In this document: positions 1-62,897 of the stretch, piece after piece
Position numbering within the stretch: position 1 is the first letter of the stretch
How the letters are laid out: each line of letters starts with the position of its first letter
Source of the DNA: a phage
Sequence record: OZ346228.1
Length of the DNA stretch: 64,000 nucleotides
Direction: 5' to 3' (one strand)
Translations under genes and position numbers: made by a program
Notes under the pieces: model-generated
What the model saw: only the letters and a program-made list of their open reading frames with translations
Told to the model about the DNA's origin: nothing
The model's database searches: none

Positions 1-1
1 G

Positions 2-1261
2 GGCACCTCCACACCACAACCTTTACCTAAAGAGCTGATGGATCAGGCAATAAGCGATCTGCAACAGAAGCGAATGCCTGACTGCAAGATACCTATGAAA
101 ATCAGCAATCAGGACGACATTAAGCGATACCTGATCAGTGCTGGTTGGCTTCCGACAATGTGGAGAACTAAGGATGTAACTAAGGACAGCAAGAAGAAAG
201 CTCTACCTGATGCAGATGTTGATGCACGAGTATATGCATACATGGACGAGCTTTTAGAGTCAGAGTATTGTGACCTAATTATCAACTTCTGGAACAAAAC
301 TGATGCTAAGTTTCAGACAACAGTGCACAAGTTCCGAAGCTTTCCTAACTCCGAAAGGATTAAAAAGGAAGTGTTCGGGAAAATACGCAGAAAAGCCAGG
401 GCACTTATTACTTCTCCGCAACTGAAAGATACGTTTGGACACCTATGTCCGAATCTTGAAAAATTGAACGGAGAGATGGCTAAAGATATCGTCTTGTGGT
501 TATCATTGCGAAACCGCAGATCGGTCCTTGATCCAATCAAGGAGGATAAGGTTGATACTGGTCTTCTTAATCACCCACGTTTGAAGATTGACCATAAGCT
601 TCCTGCTAAAAGCTCTGGATTAACAAACACTTCCCGACAGAAACACAGTATTTGTGCAAACATGCCTAAACCATCTCCTAAAGTGGTTATGGGTAAAGAG
701 ATGCGTAGCTTGTGGGGTGTTCCTCCTGGATACTTTGAGATCGGTATTGACGGGTCCAACTTAGAGCAGCTTATCGGGGCTTGGGGTGCCTTTGAGTTCG
801 ACAACGGCTTGTACTATGATGTTGTAAGTAACGGGGACGCACACCAAAACAATGCTGAGGCATATACAAAAGTAGCAGGCAGAGAGGTGTCTCGTAACGA
901 CGGTAAACCTATCACGTATGGGGTTATGTACGGGGCACAAAAAGATAAAGTTGCAGATATGCTGGATATCTCCCCAGAGTTGGGGCAAAGGGTGATCGAT
1001 GCACTTTGGGATGCCAACCCAGGTCTTAAGGGGCGCAAAGAGGATCTGGAGAAATTCTGGGAAGCAACAGGTAAGAAGTTTATCTACTCTTTTGATGGTC
1101 ATGCTATCTGGACCCGATCTAAACACTCTTTACTTAATGCATACCAACAAAATGGCGGCGCATCGTTGTGTGACTTAGTTGGGATACTCATGCACCATCA
1201 AATGGTGAAGCGTGGGTGGTACGATGAAGGTGTTCGTCGTATTATCTATTACCATAAATAA
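2..1261 (+). CDS. DNA polymerase family A, fingers/palm portion; 5' end lies outside window; frame stops just before motif C
   Basis: Frame open from window start. Motif A-like IDGSNLEQL, motif B RNDGKPITYGVMYGAQ, and colinear similarity to T7/PolI through ...LLNAYQQNGGASLCDL...KRGWYDEG; ends ...IIYYHK* where HDE motif C is expected. Confidence 0.85.
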   Translation, partial: GTSTPQPLPKELMDQAISDLQQKRMPDCKIPMKISNQDDIKRYLISAGWLPTMWRTKDVTKDSKKKALPDADVDARVYAYMDELLESEYCDLIINFWNKTDAKFQTTVHKFRSFPNSERIKKEVFGKIRRKARALITSPQLKDTFGHLCPNLEKLNGEMAKDIVLWLSLRNRRSVLDPIKEDKVDTGLLNHPRLKIDHKLPAKSSGLTNTSRQKHSICANMPKPSPKVVMGKEMRSLWGVPPGYFEIGIDGSNLEQLIGAWGAFEFDNGLYYDVVSNGDAHQNNAEAYTKVAGREVSRNDGKPITYGVMYGAQKDKVADMLDISPELGQRVIDALWDANPGLKGRKEDLEKFWEATGKKFIYSFDGHAIWTRSKHSLLNAYQQNGGASLCDLVGILMHHQMVKRGWYDEGVRRIIYYHK

Positions 1262-2300
1262 CATTGTGGCTTCGTGCAGTGATGCACGTCGAAAACCTCT
1301 TTAATTGACGGGAAGGCTAAGTTGACTTTTACACCTAAACATGGTAAAAGCTCAATATGCTAATCCGCAGCGAAGACTAAAGGGGTGTAGTTAAAATGGC
1401 TAGATCAGTTGAGTATCACGGATATACCGTGTTTGATGATGGAACAATACCTTTATCGAAACGTGATCATACAACAATGTTTTGTTTTGATAATGGTCGA
1501 GGTTACCTTTGCGTAACCATGTTCATCGAGGGGAAGCAGTGCACAAAAGGTGTCCACCACTTGGTTGCTGAATGCTTTGTATCAAACCCTGATCCTGAAA
1601 GGCTCACATGGGTGAACCATAAGGACGGAAACAAATACAACAATGCATACTGGAACCTTGAATGGACCACCCCTGGTGGAAATATCAAACACGCTTATGA
1701 TAATGACCTCAGAGTAAGGCCAGTCGGTGAGTATAATGCCAACGCTGTACTGACCGAGGATGAGGTAACGGAGATTTGCGAACTGTTACAAAGTGGTTTA
1801 CGACAATGCGAGATTAGGGATCTTGGGTATCCTTATGAGACGGTCAGAGCCATAAAGCAAAGAAGACAGTGGAAACATATCTCTAAAAACTACACCTGGT
1901 AGTAACGTTCAGAGACTATCGAAAGCATAGCGCCAACATAAATTGGTGCGAAGAAGCGAGTAGAGTAGACCAGCAAGTGCGGTCGAAATGGGAGGTGCCT
2001 TGGTAACAAGGTAGTGAGATAGTCCGATCCATACAGGAAACTGTATGGCTGTGCACGTAATGGTGCGGGGTAGCTTAACGACCTACCTGAACTATTGGAT
2101 GAGTACCAACTTCAAGTCCCTGACACACCGAAGTATAAGACTGTGTACACCTTCGACACAATCGAAGAACTGGAAGCATTTAAGGCAGAGCAGGAGGCCA
2201 AACTTCATGTGTTCGACGGTCATAAGTACAAAAAGGCACGCAAGGATGAGGACGGAAACGAAGTGGTTGACAGAGACGGAAACACGGTGTACGATCCTAT
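1256..2300 (+). mobile_element. Putative self-splicing intron (group I-like) carrying an HNH homing endonuclease, inserted at Pol A motif C; boundaries approximate
   Basis: Polymerase frame broken at motif C; HNH ORF inside; C-terminal polymerase residues resume in ORF 2095-2451; GNRA-capped hairpin ccatacag-gaaa-ctgtatgg at 2029-2048. Confidence 0.45.
1396..1902 (+). CDS. HNH homing endonuclease (intron-encoded)
   Basis: HNH motif region WVNHKDGNKYNNAYWNLEW; RBS-like aaagggg upstream of ATG; sits between the polymerase segments. Confidence 0.8.
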   Translation: MARSVEYHGYTVFDDGTIPLSKRDHTTMFCFDNGRGYLCVTMFIEGKQCTKGVHHLVAECFVSNPDPERLTWVNHKDGNKYNNAYWNLEWTTPGGNIKHAYDNDLRVRPVGEYNANAVLTEDEVTEICELLQSGLRQCEIRDLGYPYETVRAIKQRRQWKHISKNYTW

Positions 2301-2451
2301 CCTGAACGATGACGGAAAGCTTGAACTTATCTGGAGCCCTGTGGGTGAAATGGTGGTGCATTGCTTCTGGCAAGCTTCTAAAATGATGGGCGTCCCGTTC
2401 CAGATCACGGGTGAATACCTGTGTGGTCGTAATTGGGGTGATTGTCACTAA
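2095..2451 (+). CDS. DNA polymerase A C-terminal segment (exon 2 lies within this frame, roughly 2300-2451)
   Basis: C-terminus ...VPFQITGEYLCGRNWGDCH matches the PolI/T7 C-terminal tail (GENWDQAH / GPNWAICH); no RBS at the listed start. Confidence 0.55.
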   Translation: MDEYQLQVPDTPKYKTVYTFDTIEELEAFKAEQEAKLHVFDGHKYKKARKDEDGNEVVDRDGNTVYDPILNDDGKLELIWSPVGEMVVHCFWQASKMMGVPFQITGEYLCGRNWGDCH

Positions 2452-2500
2452 TGTAAACTATCAACACATGGAAGTGTTGTTGAGCAAAGAGGAGACTTTT

Positions 2501-2785
2501 ATGGTAGTAGAACCAACAAAAACATTTACATCCATGACTATCCCTGTTATTATGCAGGTGGAGTGTGTTCAGGTATCTCAAGTGTGGCCTGGCACCAAAA
2601 TCCCGACAGGGCCTGATTTCTTTCAGGTTGGCAAAGTGTACAATGTCTGGAAGGCACCAGATTGTTACCCTTTCATCAAAGATGACCGTGGGATGCTGTG
2701 GTATCTTGGAAATGATTTGACACTGCACCTTGGGAATGCTATTATTGCAGTATTCAGACTTAACAAGAAGGAGACTGATCAATGA
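2501..2785 (+). CDS. hypothetical protein
   Basis: RBS agaggag before internal ATG (MVVEPTK...); stop overlaps next start (ATGA). Confidence 0.5.
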   Translation: MVVEPTKTFTSMTIPVIMQVECVQVSQVWPGTKIPTGPDFFQVGKVYNVWKAPDCYPFIKDDRGMLWYLGNDLTLHLGNAIIAVFRLNKKETDQ

Positions 2786-3009
2786 CGACTTTGGTTAAAG
2801 CTACCTTTGTAGAAGAAAAGATGACAGACCTGTCATTCTTTAAAGAAGGAAAGACCTACGAGGTTTATTACGATAAAGCTCGTGCAAATAAAATGATTAA
2901 AGACGAGGAAGGGGTTGCCTGGTTTATCTCCCATCTGGCAAACGGTGAGTATCATATCTACGGAACCACCCTGCTTGCCAAGTTTGTAGCTGTTGAAGAG
3001 GACCTATGA
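2782..3009 (+). CDS. hypothetical protein
   Basis: RBS aaggagac; ATGA overlap with upstream ORF. Confidence 0.6.
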   Translation: MTTLVKATFVEEKMTDLSFFKEGKTYEVYYDKARANKMIKDEEGVAWFISHLANGEYHIYGTTLLAKFVAVEEDL

Positions 3010-4249: not shown

Positions 4250-4638
4250 TGAAAAATATTTGGGATATCGATATCTTTGAAGCCTCTAAGCTTGATGGTG
4301 CTGATGGAGTGATTATGGTGTCTGATGGCAAAGCAACACTAACTTCCGGAGATATCATCTATGCCTTGGACGAGCTGGCGCTTCTGAAATCTACCGGTAA
4401 CACTTTAGAGGAGCGTCTTCAAGGCTTCGCCTTCAAAGAAGGCACAAATACCGCCATGATGTGCACCACACGGACAGTTCAAGTTGGTAACGGTGTCTAT
4501 ATGATCATTGCTGTGTGTCCTAAATTCAGCAACGTCAACAAAGATGATGCTGACGCTGTCAACGATGTGGTTGTTCTCTTCGTGGGTGACGCTATGGCAG
4601 ATCTGATGAATGCAGGAGAAGCAGCAAATGAAGACTGA
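4249..4638 (+). CDS. hypothetical protein
   Basis: RBS gaggaagc; start overlaps upstream stop. Confidence 0.55.
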   Translation: MKNIWDIDIFEASKLDGADGVIMVSDGKATLTSGDIIYALDELALLKSTGNTLEERLQGFAFKEGTNTAMMCTTRTVQVGNGVYMIIAVCPKFSNVNKDDADAVNDVVVLFVGDAMADLMNAGEAANED

Positions 4639-4930
4639 AAACATCACCCCCGCAGGGTTCTTAAAAGTATACCGTGAACTGCTATATACTACAGAGGACA
4701 GTGTTCTAGAGTATCCAGAATATCTTTTGCTGTATAAGTATCTGCAGGAGGCTGGTGAAAATCTGCCAGTTAGTGCAGAAGGTGGTCCGAACTGGATATA
4801 CAGCGCATGGAGAAAGGTTGACATTCTCCCAGATCCGGGTAAAGATATGGTAGTTTGGCAGCTTATCAACAACATCGGGATTCCAATCTTTGATGAAGCT
4901 GTTAAAATCTATTTTGAACTTGACGATTAA
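4628..4930 (+). CDS. hypothetical protein
   Basis: RBS caggagaag before ATG (MKTEN...). Confidence 0.5.
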   Translation: MKTENITPAGFLKVYRELLYTTEDSVLEYPEYLLLYKYLQEAGENLPVSAEGGPNWIYSAWRKVDILPDPGKDMVVWQLINNIGIPIFDEAVKIYFELDD

Positions 4931-4947
4931 TATCAGGAGACCTTAAG

Positions 4948-5193
4948 ATGGCTGAAGTAGTTGCTCGCGCAGGACAGAAAGTACGTTGTGTGGAAGTAGG
5001 TTTTGGTGGCAAAGGGTGTCAAAACTTGACTCAAGGTAAGGAATACGCTGTTATTTCTGGTGGTGGCGACGAGAGTATTGTGTTCGAGGGCCACATCCTG
5101 GATGCTGAAAACTTTGAAATCTTTGACGACGATGGAGATCCGATCACCTGCCTGCTGGACGGGAATTGGGGAACTTTCGAAGTGATTGGCTAA
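4948..5193 (+). CDS. hypothetical protein
   Basis: RBS caggagac. Confidence 0.6.
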   Translation: MAEVVARAGQKVRCVEVGFGGKGCQNLTQGKEYAVISGGGDESIVFEGHILDAENFEIFDDDGDPITCLLDGNWGTFEVIG

Positions 5194-36263: not shown

Positions 36264-37472
36264 TCAGCAACCACAACTTCCGTAGTGCTTAACTCGCTCG
36301 ATAACTTCCGCTTGCTTACCTTTATTGTAAGGACGGGAGTTAGGACTGGAAAGGTATCCAGACACACGTCGAATTACACTGATCGTTCCCTCTTCATGGT
36401 TTCCACACTCTGGGCATACAAAGCCTTTAGCTGTTGCACTGAACTCACCAGAGAAACCACACTTGAGACATTTATCCACAGGTTGGTTAATACCAAAATA
36501 CATAATGTGTTTATACCCGAAGTCAACAAGAGCCTCTAAAGCATCCAGGTTGTTTTTCAGGTTAGGTGTTTCTACGTATCCGATGTTGCCACCAGAGGAT
36601 ATCATAGCAAAACCTTCTTCATACTCCCACTTATCAAAAGGAGAGCTATTGATCCATACTGGCTGATGGAAACTGTTGGTGAGATATTCATGCTCGTGCT
36701 TCAACACTTCAGGATATTCACGATCCAGACAGGTTGCAGCTTTATAGCATAGACTCTCAGAAGGGGTGCCGTACAAACTAAACGCTAGTCTACTTTTCTT
36801 CTTGTATCGCTCACAAGCATCTCTCATGTGCTGAAGTATTCCAAGAGCTAAAGCCTTGTCACCCTCTCTGCCCAAAATCTGACAGGTTTCATACACACCA
36901 ATATACCCAATACTGATGGAAGCGTACCCGTCATAGAAGAGTTTATCAATACTCTCTTCAGGATCCAGGCGAGCAAGAGCGCCTTCACACCACATGATAG
37001 GGTTCTGCCCTGCCTTAGTGCCTTTCAGACGGTTAACCCTTACAAGGTGAGCTTCATATGCCAAATCCAGATACTCGTCAAGAACGGAAAAGAAATCAAC
37101 ACCTTCCGTCTTAGCTTTTGCCGCAATCATTGGCAGGTTAAGACTAACAACACCCAAGTTGAATCTGCCGAGGTATTTCTCCTCACCTGTTTCCAAGTCA
37201 TTGTATTTGCTAAGAAAACTCCGGCAACCCATGCTCGTTACTTTACCATCTGTCGAGCCTGTCACTTTACGATTTAGTGGAACAGAAACAAAGTCAGGAT
37301 AAATCCGCTCTGCAGAGCATTCCAGAGCTAATCGTTTCAAATCATAGTTAGGATCTCCAGGGTTCATGTTGACACCCTCTTCTAGGAAGAACAACACTTT
37401 AGGGAACACAGGTGTGATACGTTCTTCACCAAGACCCATTTTGTGGACTTTCAAGTAGTTTTTGGTAATCAT
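36264..37472 (-). CDS. nrdD: anaerobic ribonucleoside-triphosphate reductase, C-terminal part (glycyl radical domain)
   Basis: C-terminal glycyl-radical motif RVSGYLS and terminal Cys pair; N-terminal part is in separate upstream ORF. Confidence 0.8.
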   Translation of the reverse strand: MITKNYLKVHKMGLGEERITPVFPKVLFFLEEGVNMNPGDPNYDLKRLALECSAERIYPDFVSVPLNRKVTGSTDGKVTSMGCRSFLSKYNDLETGEEKYLGRFNLGVVSLNLPMIAAKAKTEGVDFFSVLDEYLDLAYEAHLVRVNRLKGTKAGQNPIMWCEGALARLDPEESIDKLFYDGYASISIGYIGVYETCQILGREGDKALALGILQHMRDACERYKKKSRLAFSLYGTPSESLCYKAATCLDREYPEVLKHEHEYLTNSFHQPVWINSSPFDKWEYEEGFAMISSGGNIGYVETPNLKNNLDALEALVDFGYKHIMYFGINQPVDKCLKCGFSGEFSATAKGFVCPECGNHEEGTISVIRRVSGYLSSPNSRPYNKGKQAEVIERVKHYGSCGC

Positions 37473-38320
37473 TCTACCAAAGACTGAGGTGTCCAGACCT
37501 AAACTTAATGTGATGAATGGAGTCTGCTGTCTCCTCCCTGTGTTTCCACAGGGCCAGACTATCTCTTACTCTACTTCAATAAGATAATAACCCTTTATTG
37601 TGAGATGCTTACCTTCGGCATTTCCTTCGATAGCCCTATGAACGTTACCTACGTTCAAATTTAAGGCTTTTGCACAGGCATAGAGTGAAGGATATTCACC
37701 CACCAAGGTTTTACCTTTGTATGCCTGCACTTTCCTATAGCACTTACCTGGACAAAGTCCTGTTCGGAAAGCATGTCTCTTATTATCTTCCGGCAAAACC
37801 CACTCTAGGTTAGACGGATGATCATTCAATGTATTGCCATCTTTATGATTCACTTCCCAGTTTTCAGGGTCTTCTGGGACATCCGGCAAACAATACAAGG
37901 CAACAATCCTTGAGGTTTGGATTCGAATCTTTTTACCTTTGTGGTTGAAAGAGTACATATAACGGCGTTTAACATGCTTGTTACCTTTTCCATAACCTCC
38001 CCACAATATTGGGTGTAGCATTCCACGTTTTCCGTATACGTTTCCAACCTCATCAATCACATAGTTTGATTCTTCACCATTAAGAATGATCTTTTTCATA
38101 GAGCCTCTCCATTTCGAAGTTAGTATTTCAACTAACCCCTACACTACTTGGTTCAGAAATGTTTGTCAAGCATTTCTGCCTTTCGTTAGTCGTTACAACC
38201 GTTCCAACTCCTGTAAGAACTAGTCACGGGATTGGCATAGCTTTCGCCTTAGCGTTCCCCGTTAGCCGGATTTACCGACCCCTCTTATGAGGTTAGGAGA
38301 GTTTTACAACGGCCAGTTTG
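37473..38320 (-). mobile_element. intervening sequence in nrdD (intron-like) carrying HNH endonuclease; bounds approximate
   Basis: nrdD reading frame split into two ORFs flanking an HNH ORF; about 220 nt of ORF-free hairpin-rich sequence at 38100-38320. Confidence 0.45.
37566..38099 (-). CDS. HNH homing endonuclease
   Basis: WEVNHKDGNTLNDHPSNLEW HNH motif; paralogous to 1396-1902. Confidence 0.8.
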   Translation of the reverse strand: MKKIILNGEESNYVIDEVGNVYGKRGMLHPILWGGYGKGNKHVKRRYMYSFNHKGKKIRIQTSRIVALYCLPDVPEDPENWEVNHKDGNTLNDHPSNLEWVLPEDNKRHAFRTGLCPGKCYRKVQAYKGKTLVGEYPSLYACAKALNLNVGNVHRAIEGNAEGKHLTIKGYYLIEVE

Positions 38321-39184
38321 TTAACCGTTGACAGAAGTTAACGTGTTGATTTGATAGAGCAAAGTCTGCATGCTGTCAAATACGTCTTTATCTGTCATTT
38401 GCATTGCAACAGTTTCAGCATCCGGCAACCAATGTTCCTGGCAAAATTTAAGGTTCTTCTCATAGGTTGCTTCAGCATACTGTGCCAGATAATGATCAAT
38501 ATGGCTCATAGTCTGACCACCATATTGAGCACTAGCTACCGCACTAGAGATTTGGCTAAGGATTGTTGTTGCAACCCCTATTGACTTCGGCTTACTGACA
38601 TGGGCGTTACCAATGTTGAATCCGTTTTCCAACATATCTGGATAATTTACCAAACAACAGTTTGTTAACGGACTGATCAAGTAGTCAAGATCATGCACAT
38701 GGATGAATCCTTTATTGTGCTCTTCGGAGACACGGTCTGGCAGGATCTGTGTTGATGCAAGGTGTTTGCTAAGAATACCTGCAAGCAGGTCGCGATGAGT
38801 GTGTACATGATTAGTAGGCTTATTTGCGTTTTCTTTTGTAAATTCATCACAAGTTCGATCCAAGAAGCCACTAATATCTGCAAGCAGTTTTCCACCTGCC
38901 TCTCTGTTATTATCTCTTGTCTGTCTATACTGGATGTATTCTCTGGCTGCACATTTTAAACCCATATCCATAAGAGCATCTTCAACAAGGATATGGATAT
39001 TTTTTACAGAGATCGTGCACTGGTCGGTTGGTAGATTGTTAGCAACAACTTCATTAACCGCGCAGGCGATCCGGTAAGCTTCTTCTTCAGTATGTCCAGA
39101 CTCAAGTAAGGCGGACTCTGCCGCCTTGATCACCTTAATTCCGTTATAGAACTCTTCTCTACCGTCCCGTTTTACAACTTTCAC
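38321..39184 (-). CDS. nrdD: anaerobic ribonucleoside-triphosphate reductase, N-terminal part (ATP-cone)
   Basis: N-terminus MKVVKRDGREEFYNGIKV ATP-cone-like; continues in 36264-37472. Confidence 0.75.
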   Translation of the reverse strand: MKVVKRDGREEFYNGIKVIKAAESALLESGHTEEEAYRIACAVNEVVANNLPTDQCTISVKNIHILVEDALMDMGLKCAAREYIQYRQTRDNNREAGGKLLADISGFLDRTCDEFTKENANKPTNHVHTHRDLLAGILSKHLASTQILPDRVSEEHNKGFIHVHDLDYLISPLTNCCLVNYPDMLENGFNIGNAHVSKPKSIGVATTILSQISSAVASAQYGGQTMSHIDHYLAQYAEATYEKNLKFCQEHWLPDAETVAMQMTDKDVFDSMQTLLYQINTLTSVNG

Positions 39185-62084: not shown

Positions 62085-62159
62085 GCCCTGTTAGCTTAGT
62101 GGATAAAGCAGCGGCCTTCTAAGCCGTTGACACTGGTTCGAGTCCAGTACGGGGTGCCA
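62085..62159 (+). tRNA. tRNA-Arg (anticodon TCT)
   Basis: Manual fold: D stem GCTT/AAGC, anticodon loop CTTCTAA, T loop TTCGAGT, 3' CCA encoded; acceptor stem has two G-U pairs. Confidence 0.7.
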
Positions 62160-62163
62160 AATT

Positions 62164-62250
62164 GGGGAGTTATCCCGTAGAGGTAGCGGTGTAGACTGTA
62201 AATCTATTGTCATTGCGACTCGGGTGGTTCGACTCCACCACTCCCCACCA
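62164..62250 (+). tRNA. tRNA-Tyr (anticodon GTA), long variable arm
   Basis: Acceptor GGGGAGT/ACTCCCC, anticodon loop CTGTAAA, T loop TTCGACT, CCA encoded. Confidence 0.8.
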
Positions 62251-62364
62251 AATTTATATTTTTAGATGCATAAATAATACAGATAATGGCATTGATATTT
62301 ATCGTCGTTTATACTAGTCACTAACTGCTCGAAAATCAGTGTCATTATCAGTATTATTTATAAA

Positions 62365-62455
62365 GGAGGGTAGGGAGCAATGGTGCTCAATCGGTCTTGA
62401 AAACCGTCCCGTTGAGGATGACTCGATGATGGTTCGATTCCATTACTCTCCGCCA
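62365..62455 (+). tRNA. tRNA-Ser (anticodon TGA), long variable arm
   Basis: Acceptor GGAGGGT/ACTCTCC, anticodon loop CTTGAAA, T loop TTCGATT, CCA encoded. Confidence 0.7.
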
Positions 62456-62553
62456 CATTGTTGACCTTGTAATTAAGCGAAAGTCGGAAGCAGAACCGGA
62501 TTATCAAATGTTACAGTCGTCATCGCCGACTAGCAACATGGTCAACATACTGA

Positions 62554-62652
62554 GCTAGGTAAGCCCTTTGGCAAGGGCGAGGATTTTTAATCCTGAAAAT
62601 AGACGAGGTAGTCGTTGAATACATAGGTGGTTCGATTCCATCACCTAGCACC
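62554..62652 (+). tRNA. atypical tRNA-like gene; anticodon loop TTTTTAA (Lys-TTT-like), about 28 nt extra between anticodon and T arms; may be a pseudo-tRNA
   Basis: Acceptor GCTAGGT/ACCTAGC, D arm GCCC-TTTGGCAA-GGGC, T loop TTCGATT; variable region far longer than class I; CCA not fully encoded. Confidence 0.35.
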
Positions 62653-62657
62653 TTTTT

Positions 62658-62733
62658 GCTGATGTAGCACAATCGGTAGTGCAATTGATTTGTAATCAAT
62701 AGGTTGTAGGTTCAAGTCCTGCCATCAGCACCA
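62658..62733 (+). tRNA. tRNA-Thr (anticodon TGT)
   Basis: Acceptor GCTGATG/CATCAGC, anticodon stem-loop ATTGA-TTTGTAA-TCAAT, T loop TTCAAGT, CCA encoded. Confidence 0.8.
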
Positions 62734-62734
62734 A

Positions 62735-62809
62735 GGCCCTGTAGCTGGAAGGTTCAAGCAAGCGACTCATAATCGCCAGACGGTGGTTCAATTCCACCCA
62801 GGGCCACCA
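62735..62809 (+). tRNA. tRNA-Met/Ile2-type (anticodon CAT)
   Basis: Acceptor GGCCCTG/CAGGGCC, anticodon loop CTCATAA, T loop TTCAATT, CCA encoded. Confidence 0.8.
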
Positions 62810-62820
62810 AATAGTAAATA

Positions 62821-62897
62821 CTCCGCGTAGCTCAGCTTGGTAGAGCGCCTGATTTGGGATCAGGAGGTCGAGTGTTCGAATCACTCCGTGGAGACCA
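62821..62897 (+). tRNA. tRNA-Pro (anticodon TGG)
   Basis: C1-G72 acceptor, D stem GCTC/GAGC, anticodon stem-loop CCTGA-TTTGGGA-TCAGG, T loop TTCGAAT, CCA encoded. Confidence 0.8.

Follow-up and report, generated by a model that had tools for sequence, protein, structure and literature searches.

A probable mobile group I intron in catalytic motif C of a Vequintavirus DNA polymerase gene

Introns in the polymerase genes of related phages

The intron considered here is already known, since it is annotated in sister phages, and it is a textbook selfish intron. In the BASEL phages, intron boundaries were set through comparative genomics, and the text of that paper describes neither the RNA structure nor the splice site (Maffei et al. 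2021, PMC8594841). The polymerase of WalterGehring (MZ501111) and of MaxTheCat (MZ501094) is annotated as a two-piece joined CDS with a homing endonuclease nested within it; the span of this CDS minus the intron equals the 2778 nt of the intron-less gene. The intron of AlexBoehm (MZ501048) shows 100% identity across its 842 nt to that of the window, by which we mean the whole 64,000-nucleotide stretch of phage DNA analysed here (OZ346228.1). The paper on the rV5 genome reports terminase introns only and does not mention one in the polymerase gene.

A same-site intron of the Pectobacterium phage CB7 was shown by RT-PCR to be spliced (PMC7344957). It shares with the window the insertion site (...RRIIYYH/DEY..., where the slash marks the junction), P1, the guide sequence and the core. 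However, it is 687 nt long versus 842 nt in the window, its HNH ORF, CB7_50, is 384 nt long versus 507 nt, and CB7 possesses a second intron at a motif B site (GVTYG/VMYGA) that is absent from the window. The 3' domain of the CB7 intron is nearly the same as that in CR9.

The window comes from a Vequintavirus (an rV5-like coliphage). With a probability that we put at about 95%, its T7-like family A polymerase gene is interrupted in motif C by a mobile IA2 group I intron of 842 nt (1256-2097), a phase 0 insertion that separates the His codon from the Asp codon. All features described below lie on the plus strand.

Polymerase exons and allele classes

The interrupted gene encodes a family A DNA polymerase. 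Exon 1 (2..1255) is partial, as the gene start lies left of the window. Translated from base 2 onward, its last codon is the His of motif C (CAT, 1253-1255), and its frame then runs into the intron as ...RRIIYYHK followed by a stop at 1259-1261, the intron opening with AAAUAA, whose second triplet is a stop in the exon 1 frame. Exon 1 alone matches Pfam DNA_pol_A with an E-value of 2.9e-7 and 30.2 bits, for a cutoff of 34.3. Exon 2 (2098..2451, 117 aa and a stop) starts with the Asp-Glu of motif C (GAT GAG, 2098-2103) and ends with ...GRNWGDCH and the stop codon. It lies in an ORF (2095-2451) whose frame in the ORF list is not that of exon 1 and which matches PHROG 8888 'DNA polymerase' (E 4.5e-58) over profile positions 186-295 of 295, which is the C-terminal end. 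An earlier sequence-only reading of this DNA had described a polymerase frame with T7/PolI motifs A and B that breaks off at ...IIYYHK, and a C-terminal tail that reappears downstream in another frame; both descriptions are borne out by the position of the stop, the alignment with T7 polymerase and the profile match. The same reading had failed to find an HDE in the downstream ORF and had left the splice junctions unresolved. The HDE is nevertheless there, divided between the last codon of exon 1 and the two codons that follow immediately after the TTG of the downstream ORF, and intron-less alleles now place the junction exactly at 1255/2098.

Removal of 1256-2097 leaves joined exons of 1608 nt that are in frame and read ...YYHDEYQ.... 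Among PDB entries, phmmer ranks T7 DNA polymerase first for the joined product (E 1.8e-14), with motifs A, B and C all aligned: GIDGSNLE pairs with GIDASGLE of T7 at motif A, GKPITYGVMYGA with AKTFIYGFLYGA at motif B, and yyHDEyql with wvHDEiqv at motif C. The motifs that define family A are thus found in order in the joined product (A, D..LE; B, K...YG..YG; C, HDE), which is also collinear with the intron-less polymerase of phage magaca and with T7 motif C. Alignment of the conceptual spliced product with Pol A motif C, a check suggested earlier, superimposes YYHDE on WVHDE of T7. A variant of motif C, which had also been envisaged, is ruled out, since joining the exons restores the canonical HDE.

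The intron-less sister phages read ...TATTACCAT/GACGAA... across an uninterrupted junction, which makes the intron boundaries exact and unambiguous. In magaca the sequence is ...ATCTATTACCAT/GACGAATATCAG..., exon 1 passing after CAT straight into GAC GAA; at the same place the window reads CAT[842 nt]GATGAGTACCAA. The intron-less alleles encode one continuous polymerase protein and are shorter than the window by exactly 842 nt. Together with the Rfam match presented below, this exact difference shows that the arrangement is not a chance pattern. A megablast search of window positions 1-3000 against Vequintavirus records returned spans of 3000, 2434 or 2158 bases. These correspond to alleles having the intron with its ORF, an ORF-less intron of 276 nt or no intron, and all three classes coexist among phages that are >95% identical. 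At least 33 phages, all isolated and propagating, have the intron-bearing allele. A terminal G ends the intron at all 15 intron-bearing loci (15/15; ...UAUUG 2097 in the window). The exon sequences flanking the junction also differ between alleles: the His codon is CAT and exon 2 opens with GATGA in 12/12 intron-bearing alleles, while the His codon is CAC in 10 of the 14 intron-less ones. Among Vequintavirus alleles, those with the intron differ from those lacking it by four synonymous changes within the opening 12 nt of exon 2.

Ribozyme core and HNH endonuclease ORF

A covariance-model search for a group I core, another of the checks proposed earlier, gave a match of Rfam RF00028 to positions 1246-2047, over the full model, with 39.1 bits and an E-value of 1e-7 (gathering score 50). 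The match skips 510 nt in P6, whose strands are separated by 528 nt. It is because of this skipped stretch that the score of the window falls under the gathering score, as the ORF-less relatives show: the introns of JEP1, MaxTheCat and Avunavirus score 73.7, 64.7 and 91.2 bits with the same model, and the core of the ORF-less JEP1 intron is 96.6% identical to that of the window.

According to the Rfam alignment and the helix map, P1 (1252..1269) is formed by CCAU/AA (1252-1257) and the guide sequence UUGUGG (1264-1269), with the wobble pair U1255·G1266 at the 5' splice site. This wobble is invariant in the homologues, and all six P1 pairs are kept in 10/10 of them. CAUU (1262-1265) could pair with GAUG of exon 2 (2098-2101), forming a putative P10. 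On the helix map, the 5' half of the core (1273..1372) contains P2 (1273-1278/1283-1288, GUGA loop), the 5' strand of P3 (1295-1301), P4 (1306-1312/1364-1369), P5, P5a and P5b (1315-1361) and the 5' strand of P6 (1370-1372). P6a, in which ACUA (1376-1379) pairs with UAGU (1900-1903), bears the HNH ORF in its loop. The 3' half (1906..2097) comprises the 3' strand of P6 (1906-1908), P7 (1914-1918 with 2020-2024), P7.1 (1930-1936/1943-1949), P7.2 (1968-1971/1981-1984), the 3' strand of P3 (1990-1996), P8 (1997-2002/2007-2012, GUAA loop), P9 (2029-2036/2041-2048), P9.1 (2052-2056/2063-2067) and P9.2 (2069-2073/2083-2087). The GNRA-capped hairpin that the sequence-only reading had spotted at 2029-2048 turns out to be P9, with eight pairs and a GAAA loop (CCAUACAG-GAAA-CUGUAUGG). 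Introns of subgroup IA2 carry P7.1 and P7.2 between the P7 5' strand and the P3 3' strand, linked by G-U-A (PMC3428280); both helices are present here, and GUAG immediately precedes P7.2.

We analysed covariation on an alignment that brings together 10 homologous introns, 68-97% identical, of seven phage groups. In this alignment, 92.2% of the helix cells pair, versus 37-41% when the partners are slid, and 37 of 83 pairs have changed on both sides, versus 6-15 for slid partners. In none of 500 shuffles was the observed value equalled for the percentage paired, for double-sided changes (counted by pair or by cell) or for the covariation score, but alignment and structure were drawn by hand on these same, related sequences and the shuffle counts overstate the significance. 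The slid-partner control is a fairer comparison and is still decisive. Compensatory changes are found at all 6 pairs of P2, 3 pairs of P3, 2 pairs of P6 and 3 pairs of P7.2, and also in P7, P8, P9, P9.1 and P9.2. A single-sequence fold recovers P7.1, P8, P9 and P9.1 (z = -3.75). P5a and P5b are poorly aligned by MAFFT (61% paired), and their structure therefore rests on the window sequence and the single-sequence fold.

The ORF looped out of P6a (1396..1902, 168 aa) is an intact I-HmuI-like HNH gene for a putative homing endonuclease. Its earlier assignment as an HNH endonuclease is supported by PHROG 59 'HNH endonuclease' (E 6.5e-38) and by its best match among solved structures, I-HmuI (1u3e, E 4.4e-6), which is aligned as ...HKDGNK.NN...NL.W.T and covers the N-terminal HNH half only. 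Pfam HNH_3 gives 17.7 bits for a cutoff of 24.8. Polymerase introns in four other phages encode HNH homologues with 46-57% identity, and residues H54, H75, N82/N83 and N87 are invariant in the comparison of homologues (six intron-encoded ones for H75, N82/N83 and N87). A Shine-Dalgarno-like GGGG is located 10-13 nt upstream of the ATG, and the UAG stop falls within the P6a 3' strand. A scan for an internal promoter of the endonuclease gene returned 4 promoter-like sites, no more than background (2.5 ± 1.9 expected), none of them upstream of the ORF, and the same scan found no terminator.

From the general behaviour of group I introns and their endonucleases, we infer that splicing takes place in this phage. 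The transcript would fold, and P7 would bind a free guanosine, which would attack after U1255; the freed 3'-OH of exon 1 would then attack after G2097, with P1 and P10 aligning the exons on the guide sequence. The predicted spliced junction is ...TATTACCAT/GATGAGTAC..., and ligation of the exons would allow the whole polymerase, about 925 aa long, to be translated. Translation of unspliced RNA would end at the second intron codon (AAA UAA), giving a product without the catalytic Asp. During mixed infection, the HNH enzyme would nick or cut polymerase alleles that lack the intron, at a place close to the insertion point, and recombinational repair would then copy the intron and flanking exon sequence into the recipient, which is homing.

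Alternative readings, distribution and comparison with known systems

The arrangement that the sequence-only reading had thought most natural, a self-splicing intron with an HNH homing endonuclease at motif C, is supported by the Rfam match, the covariation, the ORF-less relatives and the intron-less alleles. The trans-split polymerase that it had also considered, with two pieces translated apart and assembled non-covalently around a free-standing HNH gene and non-coding DNA that is never spliced, appears very unlikely. Many GenBank records do list three CDSs, polymerase, HNH and polymerase (for example CM1, FFH2 and FV3), and ORF finders assign a TTG start to 2095-2451. However, no Shine-Dalgarno sequence precedes TTG 2095 in the upstream sequence (CGACCUACCUGAACUAUUG), and this TTG is the conserved 3'-terminal triplet of the intron. 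The break, moreover, splits a single catalytic motif between His and Asp, the intervening DNA contains a covarying group I fold that is not expected to persist in a spacer, the intron-less alleles encode a single continuous protein, and the homologous CB7 intron is spliced (PMC7344957).

We give very little credence to a decayed remnant that no longer splices, which would make this polymerase allele a pseudogene, or to an intron that depends on a helper protein. The Rfam score of the window, under the gathering score, would fit such readings, but the polymerase is the replicative enzyme and its intron-bearing allele is found in the isolated, propagating phages counted above. No core helix is disrupted, conservation extends to the U·G of P1, to P7 and to the terminal G, and the near-identical core of JEP1 reaches 73.7 bits. 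As for an intein removed by protein splicing, or an error of sequencing or assembly, the probability is almost negligible. Protein-splicing elements do visit this gene, since an intein is found at another place in the polymerase gene of sister phages (a Pfam search with that intein gave no match), but the element described here cannot be translated through, given the stop two codons past the junction and the other frame of exon 2; it is not an in-frame insertion, and the reading frames refute an intein. An assembly error is ruled out, since the 842-nt insertion recurs, unchanged or nearly so, in dozens of phages that were sequenced independently.

The mobile group I intron that we favour may have a wide distribution. 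A single lineage inserted at H/DE may be shared by four rV5-like genera, Vequintavirus, Seunavirus, Certrevirus and Avunavirus, and may extend to Aeromonas Plateaulakevirus and Pseudomonas Pakpunavirus; the introns of the T7-like phages PhiI and W31 possibly belong to it too. The endonuclease genes appear to have been exchanged for one another and to lie in different loops, an HNH gene in P6a and a LAGLIDADG gene in the P7.1/P7.2 region of PVP-SE1. The synonymous changes clustered where exon 2 begins may indicate where the endonuclease acts, and may shield alleles that have the intron against its cleavage. Taken jointly, the picture of one old, horizontally travelling ribozyme lineage with exchanged endonucleases and exon 2 changes that mark or protect the target is, in our judgement, evenly balanced between right and wrong. 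Each of its ingredients is well known by itself. Full-text literature searches found no paper on this breadth of distribution or on the endonuclease swapping.

The main value of these results lies in annotation. Many rV5-like GenBank records give two "DNA polymerase" CDSs and a stray HNH gene, where a single joined CDS (2..1255 + 2098..2451 in window coordinates) would be correct. The locus also offers a clean example of mobile introns aiming at the most conserved codons of essential genes, of a host gene constrained at the junction (His as CAT, not CAC), and of intron-bearing, ORF-less and empty alleles occurring together in one phage population. None of these points changes current understanding.

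Like the window intron, the T4 td intron with I-TevI is of the IA2 type, has P7.1 and P7.2 and loops its endonuclease ORF out of P6a; it differs in its host gene, which encodes thymidylate synthase, and in its endonuclease, which is of the GIY-YIG and not the HNH family. Group I introns in family A polymerase genes, as in the window, are found in phages SPO1, SP82 and Bastille, with the nicking HNH enzymes I-HmuI, I-HmuII and I-BasI, and in cyanophage Pf-WMP3, which has I-PfoP3I. In those introns the insertion site is Pol I position 674, which belongs to the fingers subdomain and not to motif C (PMC3428280). The introns of PhiI and W31 (AY769989 and AY769990) are reported to lie at E. coli Pol I position 881, to belong to subgroup IA2 and to have an HNH ORF in P6a (PMC3428280). 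Their hosts are T7-like podoviruses, versus rV5-like myoviruses here. Since position 881 is the His of QVHDE in the numbering of that enzyme, the reported site of the PhiI and W31 introns is that of the window intron.

Boundaries of the intron in the polymerase gene

Megablast with positions 1-3000 of the window matched 121 phage records. The majority are Vequintavirus (rV5-like) coliphages with 92-99% identity, the top matches being phages of the BASEL collection, e.g. WalterGehring (98.3%). In the same type of search, about 16-18 unannotated 'Campylobacter phage' deposits (MG0656xx, host C. jejuni) are 93-99% identical to E. coli rV5-like phages, and their host label looks doubtful. We classed the matches according to their span in the record: 3000 for the arrangement of the window, 2434 for 566 bases fewer and 2158 for 842 fewer. 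Phage magaca belongs to the 2158 class and has a single continuous polymerase gene of 2778 nt. Its junction reads ...ATCTATTACCAT followed directly by GACGAATATCAG..., whereas in the window ...ATCTATTACCAT is followed by an insert running from AAATAAC to ACTATTG and then by GATGAGTACCAA... This comparison places the insert at 1256-2097 (842 nt), and these boundaries cannot be shifted.

The sequence-only reading had proposed a self-splicing intron with an HNH homing endonuclease at catalytic motif C (His-Asp-Glu, HDE) of a family A DNA polymerase. Its description of the sequence is confirmed as accurate: the exon 1 frame, read from base 2, extends beyond the left edge of the window and closes with ...GVRRIIYYHK* at 1261, while the polymerase tail lies in the ORF 2095-2451, which terminates in ...GRNWGDCH* and aligns with the C-terminal end of the phage DNA polymerase family PHROG 8888 (E 4.5e-58). 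The splice junctions that it had left unresolved are fixed by the intron-less allele, after 1255 on the 5' side and after 2097 on the 3' side. It had also found no in-frame HDE downstream. Exon 1 closes with the His codon, and exon 2 opens with those for Asp-Glu, right after the TTG taken as start by ORF callers. Joining 2-1255 to 2098-2451 gives 1608 nt in frame. Among PDB entries, the joined product matches T7 DNA polymerase best (E 1.8e-14), and the alignment includes motifs A, B and C (motif C, rriiyyHDEyql versus aymawvHDEiqv in T7). Motif B of the window, GKPITYGVMYGAQ, is intact and carries no insertion.

Group I ribozyme core

The Rfam group I model gave a full-length match at 1246-2047 (E 1e-7) scoring 39.1 bits against a gathering score of 50, and skipped 510 nt in P6, where the HNH ORF is located. 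ORF-less forms at the same site exceed the threshold (JEP1, 73.7; MaxTheCat, 64.7; Avunavirus 19-1-2, 91.2 bits) and the cores of JEP1 and the window share 96.6% identity. The low score is thus due to the ORF and not to a defective core, and the interpretation as a self-splicing intron with an HNH homing endonuclease is supported. With only the intron as query, a blastn search of higher sensitivity retrieved homologues in the polymerase genes of Seunavirus (SSE121, PVP-SE1), Certrevirus (CR9, CB7), the unclassified Vequintavirinae phage LTH01, Avunavirus, Aeromonas Plateaulakevirus and Pseudomonas Pakpunavirus. In all of them exon 1 ends in ...YH, the intron starts with A(A/G)... and ends with ...TG, and exon 2 starts with DE.

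Ten cores were aligned after cutting out the ORF loops, and a structure comprising helices P1-P9.2 was written on the alignment. On this structure, which was drawn on the same ten sequences that were scored, standard pairs fill 92.2% of cells, both-side changes affect 37 of 83 pairs and the covariation score reaches 0.363. Sliding the 3' partners by 1-3 columns lowers these values to 37-41%, 6-15 pairs and no more than 0.091. None of 500 shuffles matched the observed percentage paired, the number of pairs or of cells with both-side changes, or the covariation score. P2 shows both-side changes at all six pairs with its GNRA loop always kept, and compensatory pairs are present in P3, P6, P7, P7.2, P8, P9, P9.1 and P9.2; P5a/P5b are poorly aligned (61% paired). 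P1 (CCAU|AA with UUGUGG) is invariant except at its last pair, where a single conservative change turns A-U into G·U. This helix puts the U1255·G1266 wobble at the 5' splice site, and G2097 is the terminal base of the intron. P7.1 and P7.2 are located between the P7 5' strand and the P3 3' strand, a signature of subgroup IA2 (PMC3428280). The GNRA-capped hairpin already noticed at 2029-2048 (eight pairs, GAAA loop) corresponds to P9. Folding of the window core as a single sequence, with the short JEP1 P6a hairpin replacing the ORF loop, gave -103.6 kcal/mol (z = -3.75) and recovered P1, P5-P5b, P7.1, P8, P9 and P9.1.

According to the mechanism that we consider most likely, translation of exon 1 from the precursor RNA would end at AAA UAA, giving a product without the catalytic Asp. 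The ribozyme would fold and a P7-bound guanosine would attack after U1255; exon 1 would then attack after G2097, and the ligated mRNA would encode the full polymerase. The HNH product would promote homing into empty alleles in mixed infection. Of this scheme, our data demonstrate the structural and comparative parts. Splicing chemistry and endonuclease activity are those expected from the intron and endonuclease families.

Endonuclease genes and mobility

The HNH ORF at 1396-1902, recognized in the sequence-only reading, encodes 168 aa and matches PHROG 59 (E 6.5e-38); the GGGG Shine-Dalgarno-like run belongs to this gene itself. The nearest solved structure is I-HmuI (E 4.4e-6), an intron-encoded nickase of phage SPO1, and the Pfam HNH_3 match is below cutoff. 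HNH proteins of same-site introns in LTH01, SSE121, CR9 and SPA01 are 46-57% identical to that of the window, and the catalytic His and Asn residues are invariant. Salmonella phage PVP-SE1 (locus L011, 701-1619; L-numbers denote sister or related phage loci) shares this ribozyme and its H|DE insertion site, but its endonuclease gene is of the LAGLIDADG type and lies in the P7.1/P7.2 region, while P6a is a short hairpin with no HNH gene. Endonuclease genes have therefore entered the intron more than once, which points to one intron lineage independently invaded by different endonuclease genes.

Three alleles (intron with ORF, ORF-less intron, no intron) coexist among phages whose flanks are more than 95% identical. 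The His codon is CAT in 12/12 intron-bearing alleles, its U being needed for the splice-site wobble, versus CAC in 10/14 intron-less alleles. Exon 2 starts with GATGA in 12/12 intron-bearing alleles and could pair with CAUU 1262-1265 as P10. In Vequintavirus, GATGAGTACCAA of intron-bearing alleles and GACGAATATCAG of intron-less ones show four synonymous differences over 12 nt, and the final 12 nt of exon 1 show none. Such a cluster would be expected from co-conversion, or from selection for a target that resists cleavage. I-HmuI-type enzymes nick in exon 2 (PMC3428280), and the exon 2 differences may be linked to the HNH enzyme of the window.

A second mobile intron is predicted in the anaerobic ribonucleotide reductase gene nrdD, at 37527-38323 (minus strand, about 797 nt). 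It separates the N-terminal part of the gene (ATP-cone/NRDD, 38321-39184, minus strand) from the C-terminal part (NRDD/glycyl-radical, 36264-37472, minus strand), and contains an HNH ORF at 37566-38099 (Pfam HNH_3, 29.3 bits). The uninterrupted rV5 gene reads ...AACGGG|CAAACT..., versus ...AACGGT, the insert (TAAC...GACAG) and CAGACT... in the window. The Rfam group I match is weak (27.8 bits, 37536-37823) and leaves the 5' part of the insert uncovered. Three states of this locus exist among sister phages, namely the intron with its ORF, an intron shorter by 540 nt, and an uninterrupted gene. Magaca has the nrdD intron and lacks the polymerase intron; the two elements thus move independently. 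Elsewhere in the window, at least six tRNA genes are clustered at 62085-62894 (plus strand), with two more weak tRNA-like matches at 62164-62246 and 62365-62451.

Phages VB-EcoM-WM (L004), 241Ecol014PP (L005) and JEP1 (L006) carry a 323-aa in-frame polymerase insertion at ...SNGDAH|QNNAEAY..., a site around 844/845 that is empty in the window. Its start (CYSGDTQILT...) and end (...KVAVCGN, then Cys) are intein hallmarks, although no Pfam family matched it; one gene can therefore hold an intein and a group I intron together. Two loci show further elements upstream of the motif C intron: CB7 (L028, 2608-3322) has an intron splitting motif B (...GVTYG|VMYGAQ...), and Avunavirus 19-1-2 (L009, 114-317) a second Rfam group I match (47.5 bits). 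Free-standing homing endonuclease genes lie directly up- or downstream of the polymerase in several sister phages, as in WalterGehring (L007, 701-1435), 241Ecol014PP (4375-5022) and CB7 (67-633 and 4640-5125). The polymerase locus is a hotspot for selfish nucleases.

Comparison with known polymerase introns

In a Salmonella phage S.Kent 1-2-1 contig (L029, about 1250-1884), another polymerase gene is interrupted by a sequence of which part is 78.6% identical to the 3' domain (P9.1/P9.2) of the window intron. Its site, ...TGRLSASNP|(E)NMQQLP..., shares the TGRLS..P|N motif with the introns of SPO1, Bastille and Pf-WMP3, the latter inserted between Pro363 and Asn364 (PMC3428280). The similarity suggests that ribozyme modules at two distinct polymerase sites are related.

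The intron of Pectobacterium phage CB7 that contains the HNH gene CB7_50 has the same ...IIYYH|DEY site and the same core as that of the window, and was shown to splice by RT-PCR (PMC7344957). BASEL records already annotate the same polymerase as a join of two pieces, the endonuclease being nested within it; their intron boundaries were set by comparative genomics (PMC8594841). The BASEL join span minus the intron is 2778 nt, and the AlexBoehm intron is 100% identical to that of the window. The element is a mobile group I intron of an ordinary kind that had been annotated before.

We take position 881 of E. coli Pol I to be the His of HDE. The T7-like phages PhiI and W31 are reported to have IA2 introns with an HNH ORF in P6a at this position (PMC3428280), so that their site, compared by reported position, is the same as that of the window. 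In contrast, the introns of SPO1, Bastille and Pf-WMP3 are inserted at position 674 (PMC3428280), unlike the motif C intron described here.
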